DNA from: Candidatus Omnitrophota bacterium | GTDB lineage: Bacteria; Omnitrophota; Gorgyraeia; B26-G9; JBDRCZ01 | NCBI GenBank assembly: GCA_043821285.1 | Contig: JBDRCZ010000017.1 | Coordinates: 15,947 to 79,946, forward strand | Direction: 5' to 3' | DNA length: 64,000 nt | Part shown: positions 3,229 through 59,960 of the stretch, one piece after another | Numbering within the stretch: position 1 is the first letter of the stretch | Layout: every line of letters begins with the position of its first letter | Made by a program: the position numbers and the translations under genes | The notes under the pieces: model-generated | Databases searched by the model: none | What the model was told of the DNA's origin: nothing | The model's input: the letters and a program-made list of their open reading frames with translations, nothing else

Positions 3229-3229
3229 A

Positions 3230-10969: not shown

Positions 10970-11338
10970 AAAATTTCTTTTACGAGAAATTTTTTATGTA
11001 TTTTTTACTAAAACCTGTGTTCAAAAGGGCTTGACCAAGTTAGTAAAATCTGCGATCATCCTGTGTTATTGTGTTATTTAGTTTGACAAATTAACAGTAA
11101 TAACTTATTATAGTTATTGCTGAAAAACCCCAGCAATGACTTGATTACAGTGATATTCGTCCTTTACCTTTGCTGAAAGGTCATTGCTTGAACTAATGCC
11201 AAGTTACATCAAGGGAAAAAGCTGCAGCACTTAGAGAAAGCTTGAAAACCGTAGGTTCTAATATCACAAGCTGGACGAGTCAAAAGCAAGCATGATAAAG
11301 AATAATTTGACTCGTCCAGTTTGAAAAAAACTACGATT

Positions 11339-25373: not shown

Positions 25374-25575
25374 ATTTTCATCGCTTTGAGGATTAAACTT
25401 GATTATTCCCTGTAGTTTGGCTATATGGTGATCTATTGGATGGAAAGTTTGAAAACCGTAGGTTTTCAAATGGATAAAAAATTTCCGTTGCTGCATTGCC
25501 TCATCAGCTTGGCAAAAGACCCTGTAATCTTGCTACAGGGATGGTCAAGCTAATGGAAATTTTTTATTAACCGAT

Positions 25576-29508: not shown

Positions 29509-29810
29509 TCCCCCCTTTGTACATGGTTTATTAGATTTTAACAGGATTAGAGGTGATTGTCAAGGATATATCGTGAAAAAGTAAGAAAAATCGTATTGTG
29601 TATTGAGTATTGTGGTTAAGAAATCTATCCACGAATGGTACAAAAAGCAGCGTTAATGACGAATGACGAAATCAGAACATTAAAATAAAAAACTCAAAAA
29701 AAGAAAATTAAATTTTAGCCACGAAATACACGAATCGCACGAAAAAAGAAAAGAGAATAAAAAGAAAAATATTTAACCACGAAGATCACGAAGTTTTTTT
29801 GTGAGAATAA

Positions 29811-29832
29811 TTTTTTGTCATAAGACAAAAAA
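29811..29832. terminator. palindromic terminator at 3' end of member A
   Basis: TTTTTTGTCATAAGACAAAAAA immediately 3' of the stop. Confidence 0.45.
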
Positions 29833-32820: not shown

Positions 32821-33140
32821 ATTACATATATGCTTTCATTCTCGTATTGAGTATCGCGTATTAATGTTTTAAATTCGAAATCCGAATATCTAAATGTTTA
32901 GAATTTGCCATTCGTCATTATAAGTGTTTTATTTTATCTATCTAGTTGATCCTGTCTAATTCGTTCTCGTATTGCGTTTTTTTATTGTCGTCTACTTGTT
33001 TTTATACTCAATACTCGATACACAATACACAATGCGTTGTTTAATCATTTCTCTCCGTGTTCTCTGCGGCTCTGTGTGATAAATTTTAGCTTTTATTTTC
33101 TGTCTTCTGAATTCTGATTTCTGTTTTCTGCTGTTAACTG

Positions 33141-36100
33141 TTAGATTGCTTGCTCTGCTATAAATATATTAGGTACTGTTATTTCTCCGGCACTTGGTAT
33201 ATCTTCAAGTAATGTGTCCGGTGCAAATACATTTTCATTAGCAGGATTGGCTCTTGTGGCTATATCTTTAGCGTTTATAACACGTTGTGAGCGTCTGTCC
33301 TTATGAGCACTAGTGTCATTCGTTTCCTTTTGTAATTTTGCAAGAAGAACCGGATTATCTTTTATTTCACGGTGATTTTTGACGTTGGGAAAAAAACCTG
33401 TTGTCAGTTTTCTTGCGGCGGTTAAATCATCAACAGTTTGAATAATCATTCCTAATTCACCATTTAAATCTTCGCTATGAACAACACCAGCTTCTAATCT
33501 TACCTGCATGCCTAATTCTGAAATCACTTCATTAACTTTGATTTCGATCGCTTTCAAAGTAGCGGCAATTTTTTCCGAAGTAATTATCCCATCATCTTCT
33601 CTATAAGCTCCTGCAAATTGATTATAAACATTGTTATTAATTGATAGAATTACATCATTTCCAACATTGTGGCCAAATACATCATTAATAACCTTAAATC
33701 CAAAATGCAATTGTGCAAATTGTGCATCTCCATTTAAGTCTGTTTCTCTGTAAAACTCTCTGTTGCCGCTTGCTCTTATGAAATCATTTATATTTATGGA
33801 TGTAGAACTAACTATATAATGTGCTGATAGTTTTATCAGTTGTACACGGTTATTTTCTCTTTTTATAACGAGGTAGAACTTATCAGGCCGTTCATGTACA
33901 ATACTGATTGAAACAGCAGATTTGCCGTCTAAAATGTTTTGAATGGTTTTGCCCAACTTATCTCTTTCTATTACCGGGTAAAACTTGTCTAAATCTTCTT
34001 TCGAAATACCCGCATCTATCATTTCCTGACGTATTCTTTCTCCTTCAACTCCTAATTGAAATTTTTTATCGTCAGCTATTTTAATCGGTGATTTTCTCTC
34101 TTCGCGCTCAGGATCTGGGCGTTCGGATAATCCTATTCCTACTAACTTGTTGGCATATTTAGTCCTGCGCTGGGTGTATTCCGCCTCATCTCTAGCAATT
34201 CTTAGTTGTTCCAATAGACTCATTTGGGAAATATTAGGTATATCACTTATTTTTACTGCTCCTACCGGGGCAAAGGGAACATAAACAGGAAAATAAATCT
34301 TACCATTAATATCAATGTCAAGACATTTAAGATTAGCGAGTATCTCGGATAGAACAGTGTTTTCATCCTCTTCTACATCTTTAGTGAACAGTATAAATGT
34401 TTCCTTAGAAGCCTTTTCTTCTTCTGGCGTTAAAAATACTGATTTTGTGACCGTAGTAATGTTTCTTTTTTTATTTTCTCTTAATTTTTCTATCAACGCA
34501 TCTCTGTTACTATCATTTATATTTTTTAGGATTGCAAAAACGTATTTTCCTTCAATCCGTTCTATGACCTTGCGTTGAATTTGTACGAGAAAGTGCTCAA
34601 TAACTTCTTTTGGCAACATAGGTGGTAACAAACCAACAACCTCATCACCACTAACATGATAAACTGTTCTACCTCTTTCTTCAATTTCTTTACGAGCTGC
34701 CTCAATTAATGTGTTAATTGCAAGTATATTCACATTTTCCCAGCCATATACATCATTTCTACCCCTTAGTTCGCTGATGTCAAAGAATATCACCCAAGCA
34801 TTGTCGTCGTGTCTACCTAAAAATACCACTGCTTCTTTTTCCCATTTTTGTGCATTTTCTGGATAGGCTTCATTAAGAAAGTTTCTTACGCGTGTTGTAT
34901 TATCAAATAAAGTGGTTAAATACATTATAAACTCTTGCAGTTCGTTATAGGGTTCGTCAGTATCTTTTCTACTTAAAAGAACATCTATCACCTTAGTAGC
35001 CGCGTCCCTAAATTGCTGATCATTAATATTTTGGTTAATAATTTTTCTCCACTTCTCACCTAAACGCTTTATTTCAGCCTTCAGAAACATTTCTATTGCT
35101 TCCTCATCTTCGCCTTGTTCTTTACACCTATCTACTTCTAATATTACTTTTTCTACATCTGCGCCCAACTCAAAAGCAAAAAATTCCCCATCTCGTTCCT
35201 GACTGGAATTTTCTCTTGGCAAAATGCTTGCCATACCTAAGCTAAATGCTGCGATTAAACCTGCGGTTCCTCCTCCCATCCCTGATTGAAGCATTGATGC
35301 TGCGGAAAATTCTGGTTGAGATGGGAAATAACCAAGTGCTCGCATTAATGTTCCAATAGATGCTGCTAAAAGCACGATGGATATTTTAGGTTTATTTCCA
35401 AACCATGCAACTAACCTCCTAATTAGCGTACCTAACCTGTTCTCATGGGAAGGACTTTTGTTTAATGCCCTCCAACCAGTTGGATGCATAAATGCTACAT
35501 TAGTTGCTTTGCGTCTACGATGAAGAAGTCCGCTTATATTTGCAGGAAATATTATTTTTCTGCTTATCCACTTTTTTACCTCATAAGCAATATATATTAA
35601 TGTTAAAATTATGCCCAAACCAGGTATTACCATACAATCGCTAATAAAATTATTCCACTGTTTAACACGAGCATAACCTTCTCTTACAGTAAAACTATCA
35701 ATAAAAAACTCTTCTCCCATCGGTGGCATGATACCAAACTTAGCAATAAAATCTGCCTGGTTTTTAAATGCTTCTGTTGTTTCTGGATTGATATCAAAAA
35801 AAGGAATAACTAATCGAGCAATGTTAAAAATCAACGTTACTGGGTTATGTTTTATAAGAAATTCCATTGGGTTTTTAGGCAAATTATCGACATGATGACT
35901 TAAACGCACTAATGTAACAGCGTATTCAAAAATTCCTCGCTTAGTAAAGAAATTTAATCCAATATTAGGATTACCCCATGTTCCATTCCATCTTGAACCA
36001 TAGACAATATCAAAATTGCTTTCACGGATAGGTGGATTATTTGTCATAAGAATTTGGTAAGTTTCGGGAGAAACTAATTTTATCAAAAATAGCGCTGGTC

Positions 36101-39100
36101 CAATATGTTCTGCTCCTTCAGTTCCATCTCTTCGCTCAATAAAATCGTCCAACATGCCCGCAGCTTTATATTCATTGTAAAGTTTAATTACGGCTGTATC
36201 GATTTCCTGAGCTCTTTTTCGTGCTGTTGATTCTATAAATGATCCCGTGTTTTCATCAATTTTTGATGCAAGTGGAGAGTTTTGAAATGTTTCAATTAGA
36301 TTATGGAATTCATTTAAAGCTATTTGTAATTCTCCATTATTTTCTTGTAATGATACAGGTTGTGGTAATTCATTAAGTTTTAAACTGTCAGCTGGTGTTG
36401 GCTGTACTAATCCACTTTTTCCAACTGGTTCTAAAGATACAATGTTTAATGGTGCAGCAATTCCGATTGGTGCTAATATGGTCTGTGATCCGATAGCGAG
36501 GATAGTGAGTAAAGGCAATACTACCTTACGTGCAAAAGAGAAGTTAACACTGTGTTTAAAACCCCAGCCAAAAATAGCTAATCCTATCAGTCCTATTGCC
36601 GCAATTACAGCACCTGGCAAACCAAAAAATAACCCTGCAAACCCAATTGCCATAATTAACCCATCGATTGAAAGTGCTGTGGTTCCATTAGGTAACCTAC
36701 GGCTGGAATTATTATCCGGCGCAGTAATCTCTACATTATCTCCATGATTAAACGTCTGTTCTAAGTCTTCTACGCTTCTGGGCAAGCCGTTAACTTTTAA
36801 CACCAACTCCCCAGACTGGAGCATTTTTTGTGTGGTTAGGATGGCTTTGCGATTACGATCATTATAATAAGAAATCTGTGAAGTAATAGTCTTAATAAAT
36901 AAATATGCCAGCAGATCATAGATATTTGTTGCGGGAATCTGTTCTGCTGATATCAGTTCTCTAATACCATCTTGTTGACTATTACTGGCTTCTTTAGTTA
37001 TTGTTAATTGGATTAATGCTTTTTGTTCTTCTTCTTGCAATTTTTGAGTTTGCTGAGTTATTTCATCCTCTAAAAGAGCTAATCCAGCCCTATGCTGCTC
37101 TAAGATATCTTTTTCAGGATCAAATTCCCCTTCAGCACAAATTATTAACCCATTTGGCATAATATAGTAGACTATATTGAGATAGCCATGTGTGCTTTTG
37201 CCGATCATCAGTGAGTTTTTATTATTTAGCCAACCTTCGTACCTTTCCTTATGAAGCATAATTTGTTGGCTATGTGTATAATATCTTAACGTTGCATTAA
37301 TAAAACCTTGCGCATCGGCTTCCTCTTCTTTACGATAAGTAAGTGTTGTTCCATGCCCAATGAAACCATTTTTATAATGTTCAGGTAAGTTCTTCCATTC
37401 TTTGTTCAAACCACTTTCAATCCTTTGATGCAGTGATTTGTTTCCAGGAGCCGGTATGACACGTTCTGGCTCTGATGCTAATATCTCAAAGCTCGTGAAG
37501 GCATAAAAAATATTTTCTCTATCTGTCGCAATACCCATGCGTGTTTGACCCAAATTATCAGTTACTACCTGCCAGGTTGTTAATCCTATTTCTCGAGTAT
37601 ATGCAATTAGCGCCAGTTCGTATATTTCTTCTGTTAATAGTCCATCATTTACCATCCGCACAAAAAGCTTAAGAAATTCGTTGCTGTGATATATAAACCC
37701 GACCAATATTACTAAAGAAATTTTTCTTAATCTTTCTGTTGCGTTCTCTTCCTTTTTGAGTTTACAATAGATTGCTTCTATTGCAGTAACACAATCACTT
37801 TTGTATTCTGAGCCTATTGGATCGTCTTCTAACAAGATATTCCCTAATATCTGAACCGCGTATTCTGTTCCAATATCACCTAAAAGGTTTTTAACAGCCC
37901 TTAGGCGTAAGTAAAGCGGGTTAGTTTTATCATTCAACGCATTTGTCACAAGTTTTTCTGCAGGTTCACCAATTCCTCTTATAATCTCCTCACCAAGCAA
38001 AAGTAAGTTGGTTAAGTTCATATTAATTATATATCTATTTGGTTGTTGAATTAATGTTCTCATTCGCTTAATACAAGATTCAATCACATGTGCTCCCAAT
38101 ATCTCTTTCCTGCCAATTTCAACTAAATAGTCCTTTAAAAGTTCTTTTCTTATGTTAGCAAGCTCATAAGCTGAATGAAAAAATAAAATTATTAAACTAT
38201 CAGTTATTTTATCAACCATTTGTTTAATAATATTGTTTTGGTTTTCTGCTCTGGGATTTATTTTTAATGCATTGGCAATTTCAGTTATAAACTGTCTATC
38301 TCTATCTGATAATTCATCCTGTTGAATTCTATTGTATAAGACGAATAAATATCTTATAAAATAATTGAGTACCTCAATAACAGTTCTAAGAAAATCTAGT
38401 TCAGTTTCGTTAAATACTTCTTTTTTTTCAAATTTTTCCTGTGTCATTTGCTCAAATATTTCTTTTATCAATATAACCACTCGTATTTCATTACGTTCTT
38501 TAAGTATGTTAATAAGTAAACGTCTTATCCTCAGGTCAGAAGATTGAAGCACGTATTCTCTTATGTGGGGAAATGCCCGCTCGACAATATTACCTAACAC
38601 CGAAGAGGCAATTGTAACACGTGTTCCGCGATATATTAATCCCTGTTCACTTAATTCTGTAACAGCAGATTGAAGATTATCTTCTGATTTTTTTGCAATC
38701 TCCGTCAAAATATCAATAATCACATCTTGTTTTTTTTCTCCATGATCAAGCAGGTGCCGGATAGCTTTTACGCCAAACCCTTTAACCAAAATATCTTTAA
38801 TATCAGATGTTATTTCACGATCTTCACTATGAGCTGATAAGGCATCTGTTAAAAGGTCCATTGCCGTTGCAATTGTATCTTCATCTCTATTAGCAAATTC
38901 ACCAAGTTCAGCCATATTATCAGTACGTGAAGCGCGATCTCTATACGTAGCTAACTTATTAATCACATCCTGTATGTAAGCTCTCGTTGTACTATTATAA
39001 CTATTTCTATTGCTAAAATGCTTTGTTGTATCTTCTCCCGGATTGCCCCAATCTTGTAAACTAGAAAAAGGTAACTTTAATCCACCTATTCCGGCAAATG

Positions 39101-39581
39101 TCAGTTTAGGGTTTATGCATTGCCAAAATAAATAAACTACCCCTGTTATCATTAACAATACATAAGGATTATTAAAATAACCATGAGGTATATTAGAAGA
39201 TAAGGAAATAATTATTTGCTTAAGTGGGTATAAGATTGTGCTTAGCGGTATTATATTGCTTATTACCAACACAGAAAATATTGCTAAAGCAGTTATACCG
39301 GCAATATAAGCTAATGTTCTGAATCTGTTTAAAAAGATTGGTGATTCTGTTGTAGGTTGTTTTGTTGTGATGGTAGCTGGGGCATGAGGTGTCATTTTTT
39401 CTCCTGAAATTATGAAAGCATGTTCCGTTACGGAATTAGCTATTTGCAATTCAGGGGCAAGGTGGGTGTGTAGACCTTTTAGATTGCCGCCGGCGGCCCA
39501 GGAAATGTCCAGGCATAAAAAGGCATTGATTAATATTATGGAAATTAGTCTAAAATAAATTTTACGTGTTAAATTATTCAT
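33141..39581 (-). CDS. giant-array member B (2146 aa): leader, HEAT-like repeats, multiple internal TM bundles, EQAI tail
   Basis: N-term MNNLTRKIYFRLISIILINAFLCLDISWAAGGNLKGLHTHLAPEL; PBS-lyase/HEAT-like LRLRAVKNLLGDIGTEYAV; TM clusters mid-protein; C-term ...NIFIAEQAI. Confidence 0.7.
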   Translation of the reverse strand: MNNLTRKIYFRLISIILINAFLCLDISWAAGGNLKGLHTHLAPELQIANSVTEHAFIISGEKMTPHAPATITTKQPTTESPIFLNRFRTLAYIAGITALAIFSVLVISNIIPLSTILYPLKQIIISLSSNIPHGYFNNPYVLLMITGVVYLFWQCINPKLTFAGIGGLKLPFSSLQDWGNPGEDTTKHFSNRNSYNSTTRAYIQDVINKLATYRDRASRTDNMAELGEFANRDEDTIATAMDLLTDALSAHSEDREITSDIKDILVKGFGVKAIRHLLDHGEKKQDVIIDILTEIAKKSEDNLQSAVTELSEQGLIYRGTRVTIASSVLGNIVERAFPHIREYVLQSSDLRIRRLLINILKERNEIRVVILIKEIFEQMTQEKFEKKEVFNETELDFLRTVIEVLNYFIRYLFVLYNRIQQDELSDRDRQFITEIANALKINPRAENQNNIIKQMVDKITDSLIILFFHSAYELANIRKELLKDYLVEIGRKEILGAHVIESCIKRMRTLIQQPNRYIINMNLTNLLLLGEEIIRGIGEPAEKLVTNALNDKTNPLYLRLRAVKNLLGDIGTEYAVQILGNILLEDDPIGSEYKSDCVTAIEAIYCKLKKEENATERLRKISLVILVGFIYHSNEFLKLFVRMVNDGLLTEEIYELALIAYTREIGLTTWQVVTDNLGQTRMGIATDRENIFYAFTSFEILASEPERVIPAPGNKSLHQRIESGLNKEWKNLPEHYKNGFIGHGTTLTYRKEEEADAQGFINATLRYYTHSQQIMLHKERYEGWLNNKNSLMIGKSTHGYLNIVYYIMPNGLIICAEGEFDPEKDILEQHRAGLALLEDEITQQTQKLQEEEQKALIQLTITKEASNSQQDGIRELISAEQIPATNIYDLLAYLFIKTITSQISYYNDRNRKAILTTQKMLQSGELVLKVNGLPRSVEDLEQTFNHGDNVEITAPDNNSSRRLPNGTTALSIDGLIMAIGFAGLFFGLPGAVIAAIGLIGLAIFGWGFKHSVNFSFARKVVLPLLTILAIGSQTILAPIGIAAPLNIVSLEPVGKSGLVQPTPADSLKLNELPQPVSLQENNGELQIALNEFHNLIETFQNSPLASKIDENTGSFIESTARKRAQEIDTAVIKLYNEYKAAGMLDDFIERRDGTEGAEHIGPALFLIKLVSPETYQILMTNNPPIRESNFDIVYGSRWNGTWGNPNIGLNFFTKRGIFEYAVTLVRLSHHVDNLPKNPMEFLIKHNPVTLIFNIARLVIPFFDINPETTEAFKNQADFIAKFGIMPPMGEEFFIDSFTVREGYARVKQWNNFISDCMVIPGLGIILTLIYIAYEVKKWISRKIIFPANISGLLHRRRKATNVAFMHPTGWRALNKSPSHENRLGTLIRRLVAWFGNKPKISIVLLAASIGTLMRALGYFPSQPEFSAASMLQSGMGGGTAGLIAAFSLGMASILPRENSSQERDGEFFAFELGADVEKVILEVDRCKEQGEDEEAIEMFLKAEIKRLGEKWRKIINQNINDQQFRDAATKVIDVLLSRKDTDEPYNELQEFIMYLTTLFDNTTRVRNFLNEAYPENAQKWEKEAVVFLGRHDDNAWVIFFDISELRGRNDVYGWENVNILAINTLIEAARKEIEERGRTVYHVSGDEVVGLLPPMLPKEVIEHFLVQIQRKVIERIEGKYVFAILKNINDSNRDALIEKLRENKKRNITTVTKSVFLTPEEEKASKETFILFTKDVEEDENTVLSEILANLKCLDIDINGKIYFPVYVPFAPVGAVKISDIPNISQMSLLEQLRIARDEAEYTQRRTKYANKLVGIGLSERPDPEREERKSPIKIADDKKFQLGVEGERIRQEMIDAGISKEDLDKFYPVIERDKLGKTIQNILDGKSAVSISIVHERPDKFYLVIKRENNRVQLIKLSAHYIVSSTSININDFIRASGNREFYRETDLNGDAQFAQLHFGFKVINDVFGHNVGNDVILSINNNVYNQFAGAYREDDGIITSEKIAATLKAIEIKVNEVISELGMQVRLEAGVVHSEDLNGELGMIIQTVDDLTAARKLTTGFFPNVKNHREIKDNPVLLAKLQKETNDTSAHKDRRSQRVINAKDIATRANPANENVFAPDTLLEDIPSAGEITVPNIFIAEQAI

Positions 39582-40421
39582 AAGTTAATAGCCTATCAGT
39601 TAATTCCAAATGTTCCGCCTATCAAACCGGCGGACAGGCAAATAATAAAATCCAAATGACAAATGAATCATTTAATATCTCAATCTAAAAATCAAAATGA
39701 TATATTAAAATTCAAATATTTTTCTCTTTGACAGGATTTACAGGATTAACATGATTTTTTATCCAGTTAATCCTGTCTATTTTCTTATTTTCTCTGTGAA
39801 CTTTGTGTTCTCTGTGGTTATAAATTTTTTTATTTTTTTTAATCGTAATACTCAATACATGCTACTCAATACGCATTACTTTTTATAGTGTGCTCTCTGT
39901 GGTTAAAATATTTTTTGTTTTTTTATCTACATAATCATCCGTATTCTACGCTCTCTTTTATATGCACTATTTTCATTACAATCATACATATTGTAACCGC
40001 TAATAATTACAATCTGTTAAATATATTTATAACAATTTTAATATATACAAGTAAAGTATACCATATTTTTCTGATTTTTCAAGGATTTTGCTAAAAAAAT
40101 ATAGAAAATAACAGATTAAAAGATTCAGGTGATCACGGTTTTAAAACAGTATCAAGGCATTATTTATAACTTATTTATTTATAATATATTATAAAATAAT
40201 TATCGAATATGCCTACATGTTAATTATTCGTGAAATTCGTGTAATTTGTTGTTTAAAAATAAGCAGTTAAAGTTTTTCTTTGTGTGATAAATTTTATTTT
40301 TTACCGCAGAGAAAATCTAAAAGAAATCTCGTTCACAGATGTATGTAAGTTACATCCACTTTCTATTCTTAGTGCGTTACGTAAACGGTAAACTGCCTGC
40401 CTCCCGTTAGGGAGGTAAACT

Positions 40422-40446
40422 AAAAAATTGCCATAGGCAATTTTTT
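40422..40446. terminator. palindromic A6-TTGCC-ATA-GGCAA-T6 terminator (bidirectional in form) at 3' end of member C, overlapping its stop codon
   Basis: AAAAAATTGCCATAGGCAATTTTTT; second hairpin CCTCCCGTTAGGGAGG at 40400-40415. Confidence 0.5.
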
Positions 40447-43400
40447 AAATTGCCCGTTCAATTTCAAACAAATCTGCTATCTCTCTCTTCTCCAGTTTTG
40501 TATCTGATCCATTTATGCCTACCCTATAGCCAGTGTGTCTTTCTTGGGGAGCAACTATTAGAGAATAAAGAGCGTGTAGTAACAGCATATCAGAATCAGA
40601 AATATGAGGGTCTATATTTTTTGCTTCTAATATTGATTCATCATCGCTTATTATTTCTTGTATAATTGTTTTTACTATATCTCTATCTTCAGCTCTGCAT
40701 TTTTCATGAATTGCATTCAGACATTGTTCAAAAAATGGTCTGAGCATCATAAGCTGAACATTATCTTCTTGTGTATATGCATTGGCAACTGCTTTTGTAA
40801 CTGTTTCTAAAACAGTTTGCCGGTAATCTGGTCTTACCGTATAGATATTATCAAAAAAGATAAAAGTCCCGGCTGCGGCTTGTGGCATTATTGTCTTGTT
40901 TAGTATCTCATTAATAACATTTCGAGGAAAATATACTAAAATACTTAATAATTTATCTATTGTAGTATTACTTGGGGTTAAACCTTGCTGCTGGATCAAC
41001 TCTTGATATTTTCTTCCTATGATTCTATGCATAGATTCAAGACTTCTTCTATTTGCATTTATCATTAAATTATTTCCTTTAACTGCTGTAACTAAGTCCG
41101 TTAATTCGCTTCGTATCATTTCTCGTTCTTTCTCAAATACATCCGTATCTTCGTTCCTCTGAGATATAAATAACCCTAAAAATTCAAGTTCTAATGCTTT
41201 TTTAAAGGCATCTTCCGAAGTAAATGCGTTTAATCTAACAGTAATATTTTCTAACAACATTAGCTCAAAGCTGGTACCTTGACGAAAAATATGTTTTAGA
41301 AATTTTTCTGCATTAGTAAATTCGGGTGAAAAGATGATTTCTCCACTGACACCATCTACTGTTTTCTCCATCACTTCATTTATCAAATTACCTACTGAAT
41401 CTAAGTTGTGAAACTCGTTTAATCTATTTTCATCTTGTATAACAGCTCTTAAATAAACCTCCATTCTTAAAAGGTAATCAGCCAAAAAAACACCATCAAT
41501 TGCAAAACGTATATTTTCATTCGTATCTTGAGTTCTTGCAGTCAAGGCTTGATAAAGAAAATCATCTATATCGGTCAACATTCTATAAAAGATTTCCATT
41601 GCTGTTTCCTTATCCTGTTTTAGAGCAAGTTCGAGGACATTATTAACATTTGAAAAATCTCGTGAAATATACTCCTTAATTACATCACATAACGCATTGA
41701 ACAGTGGTTTTTTATCACGACGGTAAATAGCAAAACTTAGCCTAATAAATGCTGCTAATATCTCATGGGAATTAAATCCTGAATTTATTAAATAACTTTG
41801 CTCCTTTTCTATATAGATTGGTATAATTTTAGAAACGTCATATCCCGCAATAACTGTGTAAGCAACTGCAGCAAAAATAAGATTATGTGTTTCTGCATCA
41901 TGTTTAGGAATGTTTATTCGTTGTAAGATTTCTCCTAATACTTCTCCTGCCTCAGTAGTTCTCTCCTCTTTTCCTTCAATCTGCGCTTTTATTTTATTAG
42001 TAAAAAATTCAAAAACAAAATCAGGTTCTGCCTTAAGATACGCTTCTATTGTTTCCCAATCTGCTGCTAATAAATTACGCAGTTTTTGGATTTTATCTTG
42101 AACCACGATTAAGTTATTTCGTAGATTGCTTATTTTTTTCTGATTTTTTCTCGTTTGTTTTTGCTCTTTGTTTATGGTTTGCTGAATAGTTCTTTCATTG
42201 CTTTGGCGACGATTAAGTGCCTGCGTCCTTGTAATAACTCCTTCTAAGAGGATTGTTACTTCAGAGAGTTTTTCTCTACGCGCTTTTACTGCCGGGGGCA
42301 TATCTAAAAGTAGAGGTTCCCTTGTTGTCACTGGAGCCTGCCATGCTGGAAGTTCTTCAGATGCTACTTGCATAGCAGCAGCGCCTTGAAGGACCTGAGG
42401 ATATAATGAATGTTTTTGCATTGGGTCTTCAACTAACATAAGCTCACAACTTTGAGGCGGTTTGAGAGCATTAATTCTATTTTGGATAACTACTCCCAAT
42501 CCCCAAGCCCATTCTGCTTGACTTTTATATAAATCAACTAAGGCTTCAATATCCTCACTTTCGTTTATAATTGCGGTTATTCTCTCTACCAGAGGAGCCC
42601 GGCTGTTTCTGTTAGGATAGGTATTAAGCATTTGATATAATTCAGGTATATTACTTAAATCATTATAACCGAGTAATCTTTTTCTCAGTACCTCTGCTAT
42701 TACCCCCCTTATTTGCTTACATCCGTAGGTATATTTATTTATAGAATTATCTGTAAGTAAACGAAGCAGGTTTTCGATATCTAAGGAAAACACTTGCCTG
42801 ATAATACCGAAAATAATATATATTTCTACTTCAGAGTGAATTTTTTTACTAAGTAAATTAGCTAATGCAGCAAGTGCCTCGCCCCCCCATTTACTAACCA
42901 TCTCCTGAGCAATAGCTTGAGCTTGTGTTTTGTCATTATTTTCTGCTTGCTGACGTTTAAATCTATCGGAAATTGCGGTTAATCGTTCAATGCCATCTTC
43001 AATCGAAGAAACAGTTAGGTGTATTTCTGATATTTTTCCTTGAGAAGCAATACTATTACTTAATTGTGCGGCTGCTGCTTGCTTTGTTTTCTGGGGTAAC
43101 CTTGGATTTCGTGACCACTCTGAAAGCAAGCGATCATTTACTTCTGCTAATCTTTTTGCAGTGCTTAACGCCTTAATTCTATACCAAAGATAATTATTCC
43201 AGTATTCATCGTCCCATTCTTGGCTTAGATACACATCAACTAAGGCAACAATATCTTGATTATTTTTTATTATATGTTTCATCCTTCTTCTTGCCAGATC
43301 TTTAATGTCTTCGTTCGGACATAATGTTTCATTATTAATAACATAATATAATGCAGAAATACTTGTTACGTTTCGAGGAATGCTAACAGTTTTTATGATA

Positions 43401-46400
43401 ATTATGCTTTTAATCATACCTCTGGTAACTTCAGCTCCTTTAGTTTCTTGCTGATTCATCGCAGTATATAAATAAAATATTTCTGTAACAGACATTGAGT
43501 TAAGACAATTACCAAGTGCCGACATAGTTATTTCTATTGCTTCTTCATTAAGAAGATTCGTATCAATTTGCTCAGCAAATTGTTTAATAATTTCTAAAAA
43601 CTCATCTTTATCCTTTGTGTTATACATTTCTGTTATAATATTTTTAACTTCTTGAGGAGCGGATGCAATAAAGGCTTGTATTTCTTCGGGTGTCTGATAA
43701 TAATCAGCCAACTCTTTCTCCAGCTTTTCTATTTGTGACGCAATTGTCGTATCTAGTTCTGGTTTATTAATTCGCAGCCACTCTATTATTCTTTTTCTTA
43801 CTGTCCGATCTTGGATGCCAATCAATAATCCTAGTACATGCACTACCTCGTTTTCTAAACACATGTATTGTGACAAGATGTCGTTAAGTTCCGTATTCGC
43901 TGCATTGCTAAAGAATAGGTATATAGTACCAGCAATATGTTTTTGTATGCCCGTAAGTCTAAGGATTTTTTCACTCAAAATATTTCTTATGCTCGAACCC
44001 CAGCTTCTTTCTAAATATAATTCTACTGCTGTCTTTAAATTATCACATTCATTAACCAGTTCTCTTATTCTCATCCTTAGCAGTGCCCGGGTTCCTTCAT
44101 GGTACTCTCTATCATTGAGCAAATCTTGCAGTGGTTCGATACTAGCAATGCCTTGATATTCAGCAAGGCGCTGTTTGATCGCTTCTATTAATTGACTACT
44201 ATTGTCCCCATGATTTAACCTACGCAATAGTTCCTCTAAGGTGAGAGTTTTTATGGGGTCAAAATCTGCTAGTAGTTCTGCAAAAGTTACTTGATTATCA
44301 GAAGGCGCTGCAACTTCTCTTGTCGGGGGGGCATCCCTGTTGGTGTCGGCTCTTTGATTAGCGTTTCGCCATGCTGCTCTTAAGGCACGTGTATCTGACT
44401 GTGATGGTGGCTCTGGAAAATGTACCACCTGAGCTGCATTCGACGGAGCTGTTGTTCGTACAAACCTATCTGGAGGGGATAGTGATAGATCGAAAGCAGC
44501 TGCTAGTTTTTCTAATGAGTTTAGAGTCAAAGGGTTATTGTTTCCTGATGGAGGAACTGTATCTTTTGGTAAAGCAACTTCTGCTGTGTCAGTCCCTTCC
44601 TTTTCTGGTTGTCGCAAGTCACCTGATTGTAATGGTACGGTGTATGCTTGAGGGTTATTTTCTTTTTCCCTTTCCCTTTTCCTTTTCTTTCTTGCAATAG
44701 GAGGACTATCTGCTCTATATTGTTTACGTGCTTTCCTTTTCATTAATACAACTTTATCTTCTTCTTCATCATCATCATATTGGTCACTATCATCTATTGC
44801 ATTTATTAACTCCTCTATTATGAGCATTAAAGCAATCCGTATATTTTCTTCTGATAATTCACCCGAACCCTCTTGCATCAATTGCTCAATTTCTTCCTCT
44901 GACAAAGTTAAATCGTTTATAACACCAATGAGCTGTTCAATGATTTGACCATTCTCGTGTGCGCTTTCAATTATATTATCTATAGCATCTTTTAACGCTT
45001 CATGATATGTATCTTCATCAAGTAGTAAATAAGTTTTTACTAAAAAACTAAGATCTATTTCTAAAGCACTATTTCTCGTTGATCTTACGCCGGTACTACC
45101 AAGCAAGCATAGTAAACTAAATCCCCAAGCCAACCCCTTCCAAATAAAAAATGCCAGTGCATCTGGTCTTGCGGCAACAAAGTGTACTACTGGATATAAT
45201 AATCCTTCATGTCGTGCAAGAGAATTTATGATTGTAAATTCGATGTAGTCGATAATAATGAGCATAGCTGATTTAGCACCAGTAACCGCCTTTTTAACTA
45301 ATTCCCAAACATTTGGTATAAATTGTATCTGCGGTTGTATATATAAAGGAAAGGTCATTATTAAGGAAAGACCTAATATAGCGTGTATTGGTAAATGCCC
45401 TAAGTTTACACTAACCGGGATGCCCGTGATATTACTGATTACCTCTAATATAAAAGGTGCAATCAATAATAAAAAGAGGCCATTTATTAATGGATGGGAA
45501 TTCAGGGTAACACTCTTACCAGCATTACTTTCTTGATAAAATTCTCTTACCGCTCTATTTGTTTTTATTAAAGCACGTAAATCAATAATGATATTTCCAT
45601 TTCTATCTTTACGAAGGTCATGTTTATTTTCCTTGTCAGATAAAAATATCTTATCATCTTCTTTCACAATTTTATATTCCACGTTACCAATCCAAATAAT
45701 ATCATTTTCCCTGAAAGTTACTTCTTTCCTTAAAATATCAATGATTAATTCCTTGCTGTTTGCTTCGTTACGCAGAAGAATAGTATTACCAGCTATTGCA
45801 TATTTTGTATTATCTATCATTCTGTCTTGATGCCACCATGCTATTCTGAGTTTGTAACCATCACCCTTTCCCTCAGTTTTTATTTTTTTTAGACCATCTG
45901 TTGGGAAAAATTCTAACCGTTCTCGTAAACGCTGGATTTTAGTATTGTATTGTCTTATATCTAAAATTCGCTTGTTATGAATGTTCTGAATTACAGCTAA
46001 TAACTCGTTGTCCTTAATACTTGCTAATAATGCGCCATAAAAGGCCAGACCTAAGCTATCTACTCTTAAAACTATTCTTTCTATTTCTGTGTGTTTGTTT
46101 TTGTTAAATAGAGTTGTTAAATAATTAGCCAATATCAGTACAAATTCCCCGCCCCACCACTTTATAACCTCAACCAATTGACCAAGAGACTGCGGTGTAA
46201 TATTTTGATGTTCATTCAGGAGATTTTCAATAATTTGTAATACTGCAGAAACTGAATATACACCAAATTGTTCGGCCAAAGCTTTGATTATTGCCAATCT
46301 TTGCGTTTCATCAAAATTATTAAGATTAGCTTCTTTTTCTTTCATCATCTTAATATAATTTTCGGCTGAATCCCAATCTTGAGTAGACTTATTAGTATCC

Positions 46401-47536
46401 CAATACTGTACTGGTTTGCGATACACTGCTTTTGCTGCTACTAATATATTTTTTTCTTTCTCTGTAAGTGCGGTGTCATCATTTGTCCATATCCTAATCA
46501 TTCCGTGTCTTGGTGCTGTTATATAAAATGAAATTTTTGACGCAAGAAACTCTTCCCATTCTTCTGGAGAAGGCACAGTTGATAAATCAGCACGTAAACG
46601 TATAAAACGGTTATAGTTTTTATTTTCGTTATTAATTATGTCTGCCGGAAGCAGCCGCCGGCCAACATGAATTTCTATATTAGAGTTTTCTGGTATTGGT
46701 TGGGTATAACGGCTTCGATCAGGGGTTGAAACATTCCAGTAGTTTTGTGTTGATATACCAAATCTCAAAGATTCGTTATCTATTTTTATGCTCTCGGGAG
46801 CAAAAAACATCATCATAATTGCATGCGCAGGTAAACGTATTGCATCAATCCAGTAGTGAATTCCTTTACGATAACTATACTCAAGGATAATTTTAATACC
46901 ACGTTCAAACAGAACTTTTAATCCGGGTAAAAAGGCAATATTATTAAATACGCTGTTGGTATTTAATCTAAAGACTTCCATATCCCTGGGGACAGTAAGC
47001 ACTATTCGCGGAGACGCACCTTTAATATCTATTTTTCCATAAGTAGTAATTTCACTTTGCAAATCACGCGCCAACCCAAGCAAACTTAGAAAGTCAATTT
47101 CTTTTAGAACCGGGGGTATTCTTTCAACCGTCTCATCATCTGGACAAGGTATTTCTGGAATTTCCCTAATATTTAATTGATTGTTTTTTTTAGAAATTAC
47201 ATAAGAACGTTGTTTACCAGCTGCGCCTGTTGTTACAAACAATACTATCGAACCATCATTCGCAAATCTTTTCTCGCATGCATCAAACTCAAACTTATCT
47301 TTAATATAACTTACGCCAACATGTCCTTCTGCCCAAGTATATGCATCACTTATTTTTTTGTAAAGCATAATATTTTCTGCAAATAGAGGGTCATTTACTT
47401 CCAAAGGCGGGGCAAGATGGGTATGTAGACCTTTTAGATTGCCGCCGGCGGCCCATGAGATGTCTAAGCATAGAAAGGCATTGATTAATATTATGGAAAT
47501 TAGTCTAAAACAAATTGTACGTGTTAAATTATTCAT
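40445..47536 (-). CDS. giant-array member C (2363 aa): leader, TM bundle, basic/acidic low-complexity region, C-terminal module paralogous to member F, EIERAI tail
   Basis: N-term MNNLTRTICFRLISIILINAFLCLDISWAAGGNLKGLHTHLAPPL; RKKRKREREKE basic stretch; ~450-aa alignment with F; C-term ...DLFEIERAI. Confidence 0.7.
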   Translation of the reverse strand: MNNLTRTICFRLISIILINAFLCLDISWAAGGNLKGLHTHLAPPLEVNDPLFAENIMLYKKISDAYTWAEGHVGVSYIKDKFEFDACEKRFANDGSIVLFVTTGAAGKQRSYVISKKNNQLNIREIPEIPCPDDETVERIPPVLKEIDFLSLLGLARDLQSEITTYGKIDIKGASPRIVLTVPRDMEVFRLNTNSVFNNIAFLPGLKVLFERGIKIILEYSYRKGIHYWIDAIRLPAHAIMMMFFAPESIKIDNESLRFGISTQNYWNVSTPDRSRYTQPIPENSNIEIHVGRRLLPADIINNENKNYNRFIRLRADLSTVPSPEEWEEFLASKISFYITAPRHGMIRIWTNDDTALTEKEKNILVAAKAVYRKPVQYWDTNKSTQDWDSAENYIKMMKEKEANLNNFDETQRLAIIKALAEQFGVYSVSAVLQIIENLLNEHQNITPQSLGQLVEVIKWWGGEFVLILANYLTTLFNKNKHTEIERIVLRVDSLGLAFYGALLASIKDNELLAVIQNIHNKRILDIRQYNTKIQRLRERLEFFPTDGLKKIKTEGKGDGYKLRIAWWHQDRMIDNTKYAIAGNTILLRNEANSKELIIDILRKEVTFRENDIIWIGNVEYKIVKEDDKIFLSDKENKHDLRKDRNGNIIIDLRALIKTNRAVREFYQESNAGKSVTLNSHPLINGLFLLLIAPFILEVISNITGIPVSVNLGHLPIHAILGLSLIMTFPLYIQPQIQFIPNVWELVKKAVTGAKSAMLIIIDYIEFTIINSLARHEGLLYPVVHFVAARPDALAFFIWKGLAWGFSLLCLLGSTGVRSTRNSALEIDLSFLVKTYLLLDEDTYHEALKDAIDNIIESAHENGQIIEQLIGVINDLTLSEEEIEQLMQEGSGELSEENIRIALMLIIEELINAIDDSDQYDDDEEEDKVVLMKRKARKQYRADSPPIARKKRKREREKENNPQAYTVPLQSGDLRQPEKEGTDTAEVALPKDTVPPSGNNNPLTLNSLEKLAAAFDLSLSPPDRFVRTTAPSNAAQVVHFPEPPSQSDTRALRAAWRNANQRADTNRDAPPTREVAAPSDNQVTFAELLADFDPIKTLTLEELLRRLNHGDNSSQLIEAIKQRLAEYQGIASIEPLQDLLNDREYHEGTRALLRMRIRELVNECDNLKTAVELYLERSWGSSIRNILSEKILRLTGIQKHIAGTIYLFFSNAANTELNDILSQYMCLENEVVHVLGLLIGIQDRTVRKRIIEWLRINKPELDTTIASQIEKLEKELADYYQTPEEIQAFIASAPQEVKNIITEMYNTKDKDEFLEIIKQFAEQIDTNLLNEEAIEITMSALGNCLNSMSVTEIFYLYTAMNQQETKGAEVTRGMIKSIIIIKTVSIPRNVTSISALYYVINNETLCPNEDIKDLARRRMKHIIKNNQDIVALVDVYLSQEWDDEYWNNYLWYRIKALSTAKRLAEVNDRLLSEWSRNPRLPQKTKQAAAAQLSNSIASQGKISEIHLTVSSIEDGIERLTAISDRFKRQQAENNDKTQAQAIAQEMVSKWGGEALAALANLLSKKIHSEVEIYIIFGIIRQVFSLDIENLLRLLTDNSINKYTYGCKQIRGVIAEVLRKRLLGYNDLSNIPELYQMLNTYPNRNSRAPLVERITAIINESEDIEALVDLYKSQAEWAWGLGVVIQNRINALKPPQSCELMLVEDPMQKHSLYPQVLQGAAAMQVASEELPAWQAPVTTREPLLLDMPPAVKARREKLSEVTILLEGVITRTQALNRRQSNERTIQQTINKEQKQTRKNQKKISNLRNNLIVVQDKIQKLRNLLAADWETIEAYLKAEPDFVFEFFTNKIKAQIEGKEERTTEAGEVLGEILQRINIPKHDAETHNLIFAAVAYTVIAGYDVSKIIPIYIEKEQSYLINSGFNSHEILAAFIRLSFAIYRRDKKPLFNALCDVIKEYISRDFSNVNNVLELALKQDKETAMEIFYRMLTDIDDFLYQALTARTQDTNENIRFAIDGVFLADYLLRMEVYLRAVIQDENRLNEFHNLDSVGNLINEVMEKTVDGVSGEIIFSPEFTNAEKFLKHIFRQGTSFELMLLENITVRLNAFTSEDAFKKALELEFLGLFISQRNEDTDVFEKEREMIRSELTDLVTAVKGNNLMINANRRSLESMHRIIGRKYQELIQQQGLTPSNTTIDKLLSILVYFPRNVINEILNKTIMPQAAAGTFIFFDNIYTVRPDYRQTVLETVTKAVANAYTQEDNVQLMMLRPFFEQCLNAIHEKCRAEDRDIVKTIIQEIISDDESILEAKNIDPHISDSDMLLLHALYSLIVAPQERHTGYRVGINGSDTKLEKREIADLFEIERAI

Positions 47537-47855
47537 ATGTTAATACCCTGTTAGTTAATTCCAAATGTTCTAATTCAAGATTTAAAAATTCCAAGATTCC
47601 AGATTCTAAAATTATAAAATTCCCCGCTACAAGGTCGAAGATCCGCCATCGTATTAGTGAAGAACGCTGGCGAACAGGCAAATTCTCTAACCTTCGGCAA
47701 GTAAAACGTTTTGAATCGTTAAATCTTAAAATATTCAAATTTTGGAATTGTTTGTTTTATTCTTCTGTCTTCTATTCTCTACCTTCTGTTTTCTGCTTTC
47801 AATCAGCTGTATCAGTAAACGGTAAACTGCCTGCCTTCCATTAGGGAGGTAAACT

Positions 47856-47879
47856 AAAAAATTGCCGCAGCAATTTTTT
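47856..47879. terminator. palindromic terminator at 3' end of member D
   Basis: AAAAAATTGCCGCAGCAATTTTTT; adjacent CCTTCCATTAGGGAGG. Confidence 0.5.
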
Positions 47880-50800
47880 AGATTGCTTGTTCTACTGCCA
47901 ACATTTCATTCCACTCTAACTCTGTAAGTGCAGGGGGTTGTTTAGGCATTGTTGTCAATTGTCCTGGGTTATTATCATGAGGATCCAGTCTTTGCTGCTC
48001 TACAATCTTTATTGCTGCTTCAATAATCGCTGCAGTGTCCATCTTATGTGCACGGTATAATATCTCGTGACTTCTTGCGGATTGTCCCCAACCTTGGATT
48101 CCTAACGAAGTTACAGTTGAACCAGTTGTAAGCAGAGATGAAGTTACTACCTTACTTACTGCTCCGCTTAATATTTTTGGAGAAGCGTCTTGAACAGTAA
48201 TTATTGGCACTCCCCGTTCAAGAAGAGGTGGTAAAGCTTCATCGATTAAATCCAATCTGGTCAAATTTATTACTTTTGCGGTAATATCTTGACTTTCCAA
48301 TTGTTCGCTCGCGGCAATTGCAAATTCCACCATTGCTCCGGCAGCAATAATAATAATATCGCTATTTTGTCCGTTTTCTCTTGGATCTTTAATTACATAA
48401 GCACCTTGTTCTGGACTGGGATTTTCTCCTCTATTTAAAACTGGAACATTTTGACGGGTAAGCTGAAGATAAGAAGGTCCTTTACCATCTAATGCCCTGT
48501 GCATAGCAAAATCTACTGCTTCTTCAGCCTCACGGGCATCTGCAGGTATAAAACCAGTCATTTTTTGCAAAAAAGAAATATAGCGAATAACGCCAGCAAC
48601 GATTACTGACTGATGAGTAGAACCGTCTGGCCCAACGCCTAAGCCGGCATGACTTAACGCAACAATTACCGGTAGTTTTGCCCGGGCAATCACAATTATT
48701 TGACTAATCATTCGGTTAGCAAAACAATCAAAGGTTGCGATAACTGGTATCTTACCATATAATGCTAATCCAGCAGCAATTCCTGCCATTGCTTGTTCTC
48801 TTACTCCGGATGGAACGTATCTTCCATTGGTGTTATGACGAGAAAAAATGCCAAAGTCCCTAGCAAACCAATTCAGTCTTGTAGAACTGGCAATGTCCGC
48901 GCAGAAAGCAATAATCTTTTCGACGCGTTTTCCCCAGTCAAGCATCCTGTTACCAAAACCATCACGTGTAGCAAAATTCCTATTTGCTTGGTATCTAATT
49001 TCTGCCGGTGTTTGTAGCATTGTCATTTGAACCGGCTCTGGCTCTTGTGTTTGTTTAATGTTGCTATAAATAAGCAGATTGAATTCCCCAATCTTATAAG
49101 GAACCATTCCATTCAATGCTTCCATAATTGTTGTGGCCATGATGTGTTCATCAAAACCCCGGGTAATAATTAAAACAGGTTTTCCTGTATTATCCTTGTT
49201 TAGCTGTTCAAAGGTTTGACCTAAGATTTCAGCCTGTTCTTGATTATTATTAGCATTGAGCTCAATCACTCTCCAACCATAAGCTTGCCAAATATTAACT
49301 AATTCCGTGTTTGTCTCTGAAGCTTGAAGGACTAAGCAGAGATTATCTATGCCATTGTGTGCGGCGAATCTAGCTGTTTCTGCAAACTGACCTTCTCTTT
49401 CTTCTTTTTCCGTGGCTAAAGCAATAACTCTGCCAGATGCTGTATCCATTTTAGCTCCAAAAGCTATACCTGCGGCCAGAGAAAGACGCATACCCGCAGG
49501 GAATATTTCTTGAGGACTAAAATCTATTTTCATAAGCCCGTCCGTGGGTTTTTCTTTTCCATCAACTAATTCTTTTGCTACTTCTATTATATTTTCAATA
49601 TCCTTGTCACTCATGGACCAAACAACGGAACCTGCGGTTTTAGAAGATGAAGTTACAGTCCTGCTTACCGCATCACCTAAACATACTGGCAATCCATCAT
49701 AAATTGTAAGAATACGGCTTCCTGGCTCAATATACTCTAAGAGCTCACTTCCTGCACCTAATGAGTCTAATTGCGTAACATTTATGATCTTAGTCATCGT
49801 ACCTTGTGATTCTAACTCATTACTGACTTTTATGGTTTGATGAAGACTTTTACCTGAAGAAATAAGAATAACCCTCTTTTTTGCCGTGTCCCACCCTTCA
49901 GATTGACTTATAACATAGGCACCTTGCTCTGGCTGGGGATTTTCTCCTCTATCTATAACCGGAAGATCTGCAGAACTTAAACGAATATAAGAAGCAGTGT
50001 ACTCATCTGGGATATTAAGTGATGTAGGGGCTTTATTTGTTATTTTAGCCAATAATAATGCATTTTTTATTGCCATATCAGTCAACTCATTAGTTTCATT
50101 AGGATCCCCTGGTTCTAACGCAATTACATTATGCATCAGGTCCATAACTCCTGGGGTAAAACTTAACTCTTCAGATTCAGCCGCTAAAATAAACGGTACC
50201 CTTGCCTGAGCATTTATCCTTAATTGGTCTAACATTTTCATCGCATCATTTTCCGGCAGAAAGACAATCGGCAGCATACCCGAATAACCAAACCCAGCAG
50301 CAAAACTGGCTAAGTGCTGTTCTCTATCCTCAACTAAGAAACATCGCTCGATGAGTTTATTTCTTATATCTTCATCAGTAATCTGTGCAATAAATTCATC
50401 AATAAATCTTTGTTTAGAATCGGAATTATTAAAAATAAATACTATCCGTTCATCTTTTTCTGCCCACTGGAGTAGTCTATTTTTAAATGCAACAGATGGA
50501 GAGACTTCCTCATCCTGTGCATAGTTGGTTCTATCTGGTATTGTTGTCGTGTCTGTTTTTTGTAGAGTACTCTCTTTTGATAAATTGTTTTCTTCTTGTT
50601 CTGTCATTTGGTTATCTGAAATAAATCTATCTACATCTGTTGAAAATCCATAAAAATTCATTTGTTGACTAATATTTTCAATTGTGTTTTCTATTTGGGG
50701 GATAGCTTCAGATAGTTCTTTATCATTTAATGCTCTACCGTGAAACGCGGTTGGATCATCTTCCATAAAATCTACGCCTTTACCTTTTTTTGTCTTGGCA

Positions 50801-55231: not shown

Positions 55232-55287
55232 TTCTATCATTTAAAACATATAGTAGACAGCAAACTGTACACTGTAAACGGTAAACT

Positions 55288-55312
55288 AAAAATTGCCGAT
55301 GGCAATTTTTTT
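55288..55312. terminator. palindromic terminator at 3' end of member E
   Basis: AAAAATTGCCGATGGCAATTTTTTT. Confidence 0.5.
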
Positions 55313-59935: not shown

Positions 59936-59960
59936 AAAAAGTTGCCATAGGCAACTTTTT
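59936..59960. terminator. palindromic terminator at 3' end of member F
   Basis: AAAAAGTTGCCATAGGCAACTTTTT. Confidence 0.5.

Follow-up and report, generated by a model that had tools for sequence, protein, structure and literature searches.

Why do giant genes with unrelated interiors end in the same way? This question is raised by a 64,000-nt stretch of a metagenome-assembled genome (MAG) of a Candidatus Omnitrophota bacterium (contig JBDRCZ010000017.1, positions 15,947 to 79,946; the whole stretch is referred to as the window), in which six very long open reading frames (ORFs) of 3-10 kb each, designated A to F, form an array on the minus strand. A sequence-only reading had described a conserved 3' module at the ends of C, D, E and F, made up of the codons for a short C-terminal tail, a palindromic terminator overlapping the stop codon (hairpin 1), a second hairpin (hairpin 2) and a GTTTAC repeat, and had proposed that the tail, the stop codon and the terminator travel as one cassette. 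We located all of the listed elements at the ends of the array genes. The module probably combines three things: a protein motif found throughout the family, a putative terminator that is lineage-specific and was inherited among paralogs, and a spacer repeat that occurs genome-wide. Its anatomy, its pattern of conservation and the separability of the three layers were observed directly. The array genes are located as follows.

29833-32820, minus strand: gene A
33141-39581, minus strand: gene B
40445-47536, minus strand: gene C
47878-53553, minus strand: gene D
55311-59036, minus strand: gene E
59959 to beyond 64000, minus strand: gene F (full protein 3,205 aa, P0082)

A terminator-like hairpin at the stop codons of genes C, D, E and F

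Hairpin 1 is built from an A-run, TTGCC, a loop, GGCAA and a T-run, which together form a perfect stem of 10-12 bp. In C, D and F the 5' arm includes the stop codon, as had been claimed for all four genes, whereas in E the hairpin only abuts it.

40421-40447, minus strand: hairpin 1 of gene C, 12-bp palindrome TAAAAAATTGCC-ATA-GGCAATTTTTTA, predicted -11.9 kcal/mol
47854-47881, minus strand: hairpin 1 of gene D, 12 bp, 4-nt loop UGCG, predicted -13.3 kcal/mol, stop codon 47878-47880 in the 5' arm
55288-55310, minus strand: hairpin 1 of gene E, 10 bp, AAAAAUUGCC-AUC-GGCAAUUUUU, predicted -9.5 kcal/mol, abutting the stop codon 55311-55313
59936-59960, minus strand: hairpin 1 of gene F, 11 bp, AAAAAGUUGCC-UAU-GGCAACUUUUU, predicted -13.3 kcal/mol, stop codon 59959-59961

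In the mRNA of gene C the hairpin reads UAAAAAAUUGCC-UAU-GGCAAUUUUUUA, and the TAA stop (reverse complement at 40445-40447) provides the first 3 nt of its 5' arm. The complete gene end in mRNA sense is ATT GAA CGG GCA ATT TAA-AAAATTGCC-TAT-GGCAATTTTTT-AGTTTAC-CTCCC-TAAC-GGGAG-GCAGGCA-GTTTACCGTTTAC. Predicted free energies of hairpin 1 range from -9.5 to -13.3 kcal/mol across the four genes, with 4-5 G:C pairs and loops of 3-4 nt, and the folds of the full 3' modules are more stable than those of shuffled sequences (z = -5.0, -2.9, -1.75 and -3.2 for the four genes). The bases after GGCAA are UUUUUU-AG-UUUAC in both C and D, UUUUU in E and CUUUUUGUU in F. Five to six U residues thus emerge directly from the GC core, and these can also pair with the A-tract.

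The stem TTGCC/GGCAA was found at the four array gene ends and nowhere else in the 64 kb, always in the same register and within 1 nt of the stop codon. The pattern TTGCN4GGCAA yielded three sites in the window (six matches, one per strand) as compared to 0.66 matches expected in shuffled sequences, a count that excludes gene D, whose hairpin is a variant. More generally, 30 records of perfect hairpins with a stem of at least 9 bp were obtained against a shuffle mean of 2.8, some of these records representing one hairpin at several stem and loop settings. A simple terminator scan proved uninformative for these hairpins as it counts the T-run inside the stem. When the window was searched with Rfam, one tRNA was found at the gathering threshold and, apart from this, one chance-level match to a snoRNA (E = 0.17).

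A perfect palindrome with 5-bp half-sites at four genes could, in principle, also serve as an operator in double-stranded DNA, with TTGCC-N3-GGCAA recognized by a dimeric regulator that coordinates the array. We regard this as extremely improbable. The palindrome resides at the 3' ends of the genes, 270-900 nt away from the next start codon, and is flanked by complementary A and U runs that lengthen the stem in a manner typical of RNA terminators. Furthermore, gene F differs from C, D and E by a symmetric compensatory change from A:U to G:C (AAAGUUGCC/GGCAACUUU), which alters both half-sites (GTTGCC/GGCAAC), and in gene D the spacing is altered, one base having shifted from stem to loop while 12 pairs are retained. 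Pairing is preserved in both cases, whereas a protein-binding site would change. Note that one compensatory pair and one loop shift among four related copies are too few for statistics.

The features of intrinsic terminators, i.e., a G:C stem-loop and a U-tract 3' of the core in sense orientation from the stop codon, are present in C, D, E and F. Judged by the A-tract, the stem, the U-tract and the compensatory pair in gene F, the most likely identity of hairpin 1 is that of a Rho-independent terminator. It resembles bidirectional terminators of this kind in its perfect and symmetric stem with a G:C core, its loop of 3-4 nt, the five to six U residues, the upstream A-run and its position at the gene 3' end. 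It differs from them in having the stop codon within the 5' arm, a short, AT-rich core and a 3' arm that is a duplicate of the final sense codons. The A-tract absorbs the TAA stop codon and is followed by a 5-bp GC-containing core, a loop of 3-4 nt and the U-tract. According to the mechanism that we propose, hairpin 1 would end each giant transcript and protect or stabilise its 3' end, and selection would maintain its pairing. Owing to its symmetry, it could also stop antisense transcription arriving from the spacer, for example from the gene for an IS701 transposase that converges on gene E. A -1/+1 frameshift or read-through signal was considered as well and rejected: the genes differ from one another in the length and sequence of their extensions, and inspection by eye revealed no canonical in-frame slippery heptamer.

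Hairpins at stop codons are not restricted to genes C, D, E and F. Different ones were found at the ends of gene A and of dnaE.

29807-29836, minus strand: palindrome of gene A, ATAATTTTTTGTC-ATAA-GACAAAAAATTAT, 13-bp A/T stem unrelated to hairpin 1, holding the stop codon 29833-29835
10966-10997, plus strand: A-run/T-run hairpin of 13-14 bp holding the stop codon of dnaE, with the architecture of hairpin 1 and an unrelated stem

The end of dnaE reads ..CAA-TAAAAAATTTCT..AGAAATTTTTTAT. A third case is a transposase-like ORF of the RAYT type (27148-27954, minus strand; NCBIfam REP_Tyr_transpos, 75.7 bits versus a cutoff of 80), which contains a perfect 27-bp inverted repeat with a 3-nt loop (27150-27206) inside its 3' coding end, abutting the stop codon. 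In total, seven out of 11 distinct perfect hairpins of at least 10 bp in the window touch a stop codon. The hairpins of dnaE, gene A and the transposase-like gene suggest that stop-embedding is a habit of this genome. In full agreement with the sequence-only reading, the palindrome of gene A is a different one and gene B has none, its 3' end being unstructured (minimum free energy -2.1 kcal/mol, z = +1.75). Independently of the stop codons, a perfect 10-bp palindrome, TTTGAAAACC-GTA-GGTTTTCAAA, is present at 25448-25470 between two convergent genes (24201-25373, plus strand, and 25576-26667, minus strand) and is a likely bidirectional terminator.

Several points speak against hairpin 1 as a terminator. 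With 4-5 G:C pairs, the GC core is short, and the stem formed by the core alone is weak, with predicted values of -5 to -8 kcal/mol. The case for selection on the structure depends on one compensatory event in four related sequences. In Escherichia coli, the terminating ribosome represses a terminator located a few base pairs past a stop codon almost completely (PMC4824070), and for this reason a stop-embedded terminator may work poorly in the organism studied here should its transcription and translation be coupled. The palindrome of gene A, in which the U-run comes first and the A-run last in mRNA sense, is not a canonical terminator in the sense direction because its A-run lies on the 3' side. 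Finally, the hairpin census covers the 64-kb window, and at least six more family members on other contigs of the same MAG, among them MFH1776048, MFH1776169, MFH1776483, MFH1776816 and MFH1777823, lie outside. On balance, hairpin 1 appears to be an ordinary putative terminator in an unusual position, which may aid annotation of the true 3' ends of giant Omnitrophota genes.

The C-terminal tail and the N-terminal segment form a protein signature

All six array genes encode the C-terminus (I/V/A)E(Q/R)AI together with an N-terminal segment of about 45 residues, M..L.R.I.F.L..IILINAFLCLDISWAAGGNLKGLHTHLAPPL. Genes C, D, E and F each terminate with (I/V)E(Q/R)AI-TAA.

40445-40462, minus strand: tail codons of gene C, ATT GAA CGG GCA ATT TAA (I-E-R-A-I-stop)
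47878-47895, minus strand: tail codons of gene D (A-V-E-Q-A-I-stop region)
33141-33158, minus strand: tail codons of gene B (A-E-Q-A-I-stop), followed by a CAGAAAN heptamer array and no hairpin

Gene C departs from the DNA consensus proposed earlier for the tail, with CGG (Arg) in place of CAR (Gln). Wobble positions vary among the six genes (GAA/GAG, CAA/CAG/CGG, ATT/ATC/ATA), and in other genomes the alanine or serine at position -2 is encoded by GCA, GCG, GCC or TCG. The codon comparison indicates that the tail is conserved as a protein-level signal and that selection acts on the protein and not on the DNA, since the amino acids are kept while synonymous codons vary, and relatives retain the tail without the hairpin.

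A profile built from five N-termini of the array was searched against 1.84 billion cluster representatives and retrieved 78 of them, including the proteins of the window itself, with lengths from 65 to 6,278 aa. The terminus [AS]-I is present in 48 of the 78, with the consensus [LF]-[VI]-E-[QR]-[AS]-I; many of those lacking it are short and may be fragments. Conservation extends over the positions -8 (L/I/V), -6 (L/F), -5 (V/I), -4 (E), -3 (Q/R), -2 (A/S) and -1 (I). The N-terminal pattern ..[IV]LI[NQH][AS]F[LF].[LM]D[IV][AS]WA[AG]G.. is shared by genes A-E, by F via its full-length protein and by the 78 representatives. It describes a highly conserved signal-anchor-like segment, ..ILINAFLCLDISWAAGG..HLAPPL.., also rendered as ..LAPxLxI... 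The C-terminus [VI]-x-[QRES]-[AS]-I-COOH is found in the six genes of the window, in 48 of the 78 representatives and at 11 gene ends in four loci from other genomes (L001, L004, L005 and L006). The tail motif was encountered at true C-termini only, with no relics inside proteins or in other reading frames, and gene fusion, which would be marked by internal tail relics, was dropped as an explanation.

All family members and loci for which names were recovered stem from Omnitrophota MAGs. The enzyme bodies bracketed by the signature comprise transketolase, methyltransferase/HD/HAD, site-2 protease and AAA proteins of up to 6,278 aa. A search for homologues with N-terminal profiles returned only short fragments and, with full-length protein C, only proteins of the same MAG. 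A collection of genome contigs gave no match, neither with the protein profile nor with a degenerate DNA pattern for NAFLCLDIxWAA. This pattern matches the window three times, which indicates that the source genome is not part of that collection. The same pattern did not match in metagenomes, where the broader FLxLDIAWAGG pattern yielded four loci. Neither Pfam nor NCBIfam holds a model matching the N- or the C-terminal motif, and no description of signature or module was found in the literature, two papers on giant proteins of Omnitrophota being silent on the signature. The bipartite signature is the more unusual and novel item compared to the hairpin.

Together, tail and N-terminal segment mark a large paralogous family with unrelated multi-domain bodies. 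Bipartite sorting by an N-terminal signal peptide and a C-terminal tag is well established, e.g., for LPXTG and PEP-CTERM proteins and for the C-terminal domain (CTD) of type IX secretion system (T9SS) substrates. Short C-terminal recognition tags are also known, among them LAA of ssrA, ..RRKKAI of MuA for ClpX, and PDZ ligands. The array family resembles these systems in combining a conserved N-terminal segment and an invariant C-terminus with unrelated bodies, and its -A-I-COOH end is similar to the MuA-type ClpX tag and to hydrophobic PDZ ligands. In contrast to the sorting systems, the C-terminal motif spans only about eight residues and lacks a transmembrane helix or basic tail, and conservation of the N-terminal segment far exceeds that of ordinary signal peptides. 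A partner enzyme for the signature was not identified. Should the signature turn out to be a code for sorting or recognition, it would provide a handle on how these host-dependent nanobacteria deploy their large multi-domain proteins.

Tail and hairpin are separable in distant relatives

Four other genomes, all distant relatives, were available for comparison. Family members are arranged in tandem in L001 (245-4253), L004 (1-12036) and L006 (1-5368), and L005 contains a single member. The tail is kept at all 11 family gene ends in these loci, and none of the 11 has a stop-embedded hairpin or a TTGCC palindrome. Tail and hairpin are thus separable, and the expectation that the module would accompany homologous genes in other genomes failed for these distant relatives. 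Locus L004 has a GC-rich palindrome of its own, TTCCGC-CCCCGGA-GCGGAA, without a U-run, in four copies in its spacers.

L004, 2495-2512: palindrome copy
L004, 4863-4880: palindrome copy
L004, 5006-5023: palindrome copy
L004, 7738-7755: palindrome copy

Three copies lie 10-20 nt past stop codons, and one is located deeper in the spacer, about 90 nt before the start of the next family gene. Shared 3' palindromes within arrays therefore recur but are lineage-specific.

Within the window, the last approximately five codons together with as much as approximately 75 nt of downstream sequence constitute an island of homologous DNA beside unrelated coding sequence. Repeat analysis revealed 89% identity over 65 nt for the end blocks of C and D and 86% over 49 nt for those of C and F. 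The 5' ends are likewise conserved (89% over 175 nt for B and C), and several spacer blocks recur between paralogs. Gene C is a mosaic with a 5' end like that of B and a 3' end like that of D, which fits duplication and gene conversion of ends. The restriction of the TTGCC hairpin to array gene ends in a fixed register is consistent with inheritance or gene conversion among paralogs. The TTGCC/GGCAA version is present in C, D, E and F because their gene ends are homologous; the ends would have been duplicated in tandem or subjected to gene conversion, and in the meantime the bodies of the genes would have been replaced or would have diverged.

Homology islands beside unrelated bodies, a RAYT-like ORF in the window, an IS701 transposase between D and E and the fourfold palindrome in the spacers of the L004 array might also be taken as signs of a mobile or recombinogenic hairpin. 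It would be either a repetitive extragenic palindromic (REP) element acted upon by the neighbouring Y1 transposase of the RAYT type or a site resembling attC, and gene ends would be exchanged as cassettes. We consider this very unlikely. Like REP elements and bacterial interspersed mosaic elements (BIMEs) with their RAYT, the hairpins are short palindromes repeated just past stops, but the four copies occupy homologous positions in one register relative to the stop and are not dispersed in the 64 kb, where neither non-homologous copies nor REP copies flanking the RAYT-like gene were found. The palindromes and inverted repeats around that gene are unrelated to the TTGCC hairpin, which also lacks a GTAG head and the paired inverted organisation of REPs. 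With integron cassettes and attC, the module shares the idea of gene end and palindrome travelling together. However, each gene has its own promoter region and its own conserved 5' region, no GTTRRRY-type attC core site fits in the module, and neither a recombinase nor a recombination site of the cassette type is attached to it. An integrase family was not detected among the 28 ORFs of at least 150 aa scanned against Pfam, a scan that leaves out ORF 5290-5796. In addition, attC stems typically carry extrahelical bases, whereas the stems found here are perfect. Like the operator, the REP/RAYT and attC-like readings are weak.

The cassette idea is therefore valid locally, as a homology island with a terminator-like hairpin between unrelated bodies, but not generally: genes A and B have tails without hairpin 1, the distant gene ends have tails without any such hairpin, and synonymous codons vary.

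An inverted copy of the tail within the hairpin

In hairpin 1, the 3' arm (GGCAAUUU) is a repeat of the tail codons G-GCA-AUU-U, and an inverted copy of these codons makes up the 5' arm. This suggests that the hairpin arose by inverted duplication or template switch, either of which could have used the tail as template.

The resulting order of direct copy, inverted copy and direct copy opens up the possibility of a ribosome-sensing terminator. On untranslated RNA the tail GGCAAUUU would pair with the 5' arm AAAUUGCC as an anti-terminator, and a ribosome reading the tail would melt this pairing, so that termination efficiency would depend on whether and how closely the giant ORF is translated to its end. 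The predicted hairpin between tail and 5' arm amounts to -9.1 kcal/mol in C, -7.0 in E and -9.1 in F; in D a structure of -6.1 with a different upstream partner is predicted. Precedents exist in ribosome-induced termination at mccA (PMC4231749) and in ribosome repression of stop-adjacent terminators (PMC4824070). As at mccA and at tR2 beside a stop codon, the terminator is located directly at the ORF end and ORF sequence can pair with one arm; unlike the 7-codon peptide gene, the ORFs here span 3-10 kb, and the alternative pairing may be a by-product. Indeed, the complementarity is automatic since the 3' arm resembles the tail, and it goes back to one event shared by four homologous copies. 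In predicted folds of all four contexts the terminator hairpin wins at equilibrium. Because of these two points we judge ribosome sensing unlikely. Moreover, a ribosome paused on the stop codon would, given its usual footprint, cover the 5' arm too, leaving the direction of the effect ambiguous, and genes A and B as well as the 11 relatives elsewhere have no such arrangement. A putative terminator with an embedded stop codon is a clean natural case for studying the interplay between ribosome and RNA polymerase.

A wider proposal joins both ends of the protein to the hairpin. The EQAI tail and the strongly conserved N-terminal signal-anchor would be the two halves of an address carried by a large family that comprises tandemly arrayed multi-enzyme and giant proteins and was encountered here only in Omnitrophota. 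Machinery devoted to sorting, unfolding or processing, for instance a PDZ-type or AAA+ protein that reads -A-I-COOH, would recognize this address. In this lineage, the terminator would derive from the tail codons, copied in inverted orientation, and translation of the tail would thereby gate termination. We put this forward tentatively and regard it, taken as a whole, as possible but doubtful.

Hairpin 2 and the heptamer repeats

The composite reading of the module has a third layer downstream of hairpin 1.

40400-40415, minus strand: hairpin 2 of gene C, CCTCCC-GTTA-GGGAGG (CCUCCC-UAAC-GGGAGG in the mRNA), perfect in C only
40381-40393, minus strand: heptamer repeat of gene C, GTAAACGGTAAAC (GTTTACC-GTTTAC in mRNA sense), preceded by AGGCAGGCAG at 40393-40402
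47815-47849, minus strand: downstream block of gene D with degenerate hairpin 2 (47834-47849), AGGCAGGCAG and the GTTTACCGTTTAC repeat (47815-47827)
55264-55286, minus strand: heptamer array of gene E, approximately GTTTACC GTTTACA GTGTACA GT
59895-59935, minus strand: downstream block of gene F with heptamers (59916-59935), bulged hairpin 2 (59902-59916) and AGGCAGGCAG (59895-59904)
3731-3743, plus strand: GTTTACGGTTTAC followed by CCAGGCAG, 13 nt past the stop codon of a non-array gene for a YfcE-family phosphodiesterase (3215-3718)
7333-7362, 7476-7515, 29592-29614, 33004-33033, 33097-33132, 55264-55286, 59269-59284 and 59464-59492: heptanucleotide arrays (GTATTGN/CAATACN, CAGAAAN, GTTTACN, TTCGTTA)

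Whereas hairpin 1 occurs in all four genes, as had been proposed for the entire module, hairpin 2 has one central mismatch in D (CCTTCC/GGGAGG), is missing from E and is bulged in F (CCTCC-GGTA-GGACGG). The order of the elements is reversed in F, where the heptamers reside between hairpins 1 and 2 and not past hairpin 2. Hairpin 2 is a decaying or accessory element. Its interpretation as a sequestered Shine-Dalgarno sequence was ruled out, as no start codon follows GGGAGG.

Tandem arrays with a period of seven and at least three copies are intergenic in six out of six cases, although intergenic DNA accounts for only 16% of the bases of the window; arrays of other periods have no intergenic bias here. 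The recurring unit families are GTATTGN, CAGAAAN, GTTTACN and TTCGTGN. Since the GTTTACN repeat also follows a non-array gene and belongs to this window-wide intergenic class of heptamers, it is a property of the spacers of this genome and not of the gene-end module. A role of the GTTTAC repeats as promoter of the next gene was ruled out by their position 270-900 nt upstream of it. Short tandemly repeated repetitive (STRR) sequences of heterocystous cyanobacteria likewise consist of tandem 7-nt units confined to intergenic DNA and fall into several sequence families; the arrays in the window resemble them in this respect but differ in phylum and unit sequences. Heptamer arrays were not found in the other Omnitrophota loci examined. 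The spacer between guaA and dnaE contains an inverted pair of heptamer arrays.

A further conserved block resides in the 5' untranslated regions of B (39600-39640) and E (59056-59095) on the minus strand, about 45 nt upstream of the starts. It consists of TGCCTGTC and a hairpin CCGCC-GGTTTGATA-GGCGG, with 91% identity between B and E and a variant in D. UGCCUG in this block is complementary to CAGGCA of the 3' module.

Genomic setting of the array

The window has a GC content of about 36% and represents a low-GC portion of a bacterial chromosome. Plus-strand housekeeping genes, including thiC, guaA, dnaE, hisS and aroB, occupy positions 1-25,400 and precede the array, which corresponds to locus tags ABH952_01580 to ABH952_01605 of the source MAG, on a contig of 85,997 bp; GenBank proteins of this MAG include MFH1776244 and MFH1776247. 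The unrelatedness of the array gene bodies is evident from Pfam and NCBIfam: gene D contains two transketolase units, gene E an S-adenosylmethionine-dependent methyltransferase in addition to weaker phosphoribosyltransferase and HAD matches, and gene F TPR/SNAP-like and winged-helix matches, while no Pfam domain was found in gene C. The IS701-family transposase gene between D and E is encoded at 53922-54986 on the plus strand, opposite to the array, and converges on the 3' hairpin of E. C and F are the sole pair of array genes with related interiors: a homologous body region (41163-41667 in C and 61793-62297 in F) has 70-74% DNA identity in patches, and the proteins are 36% identical over 24% of C.

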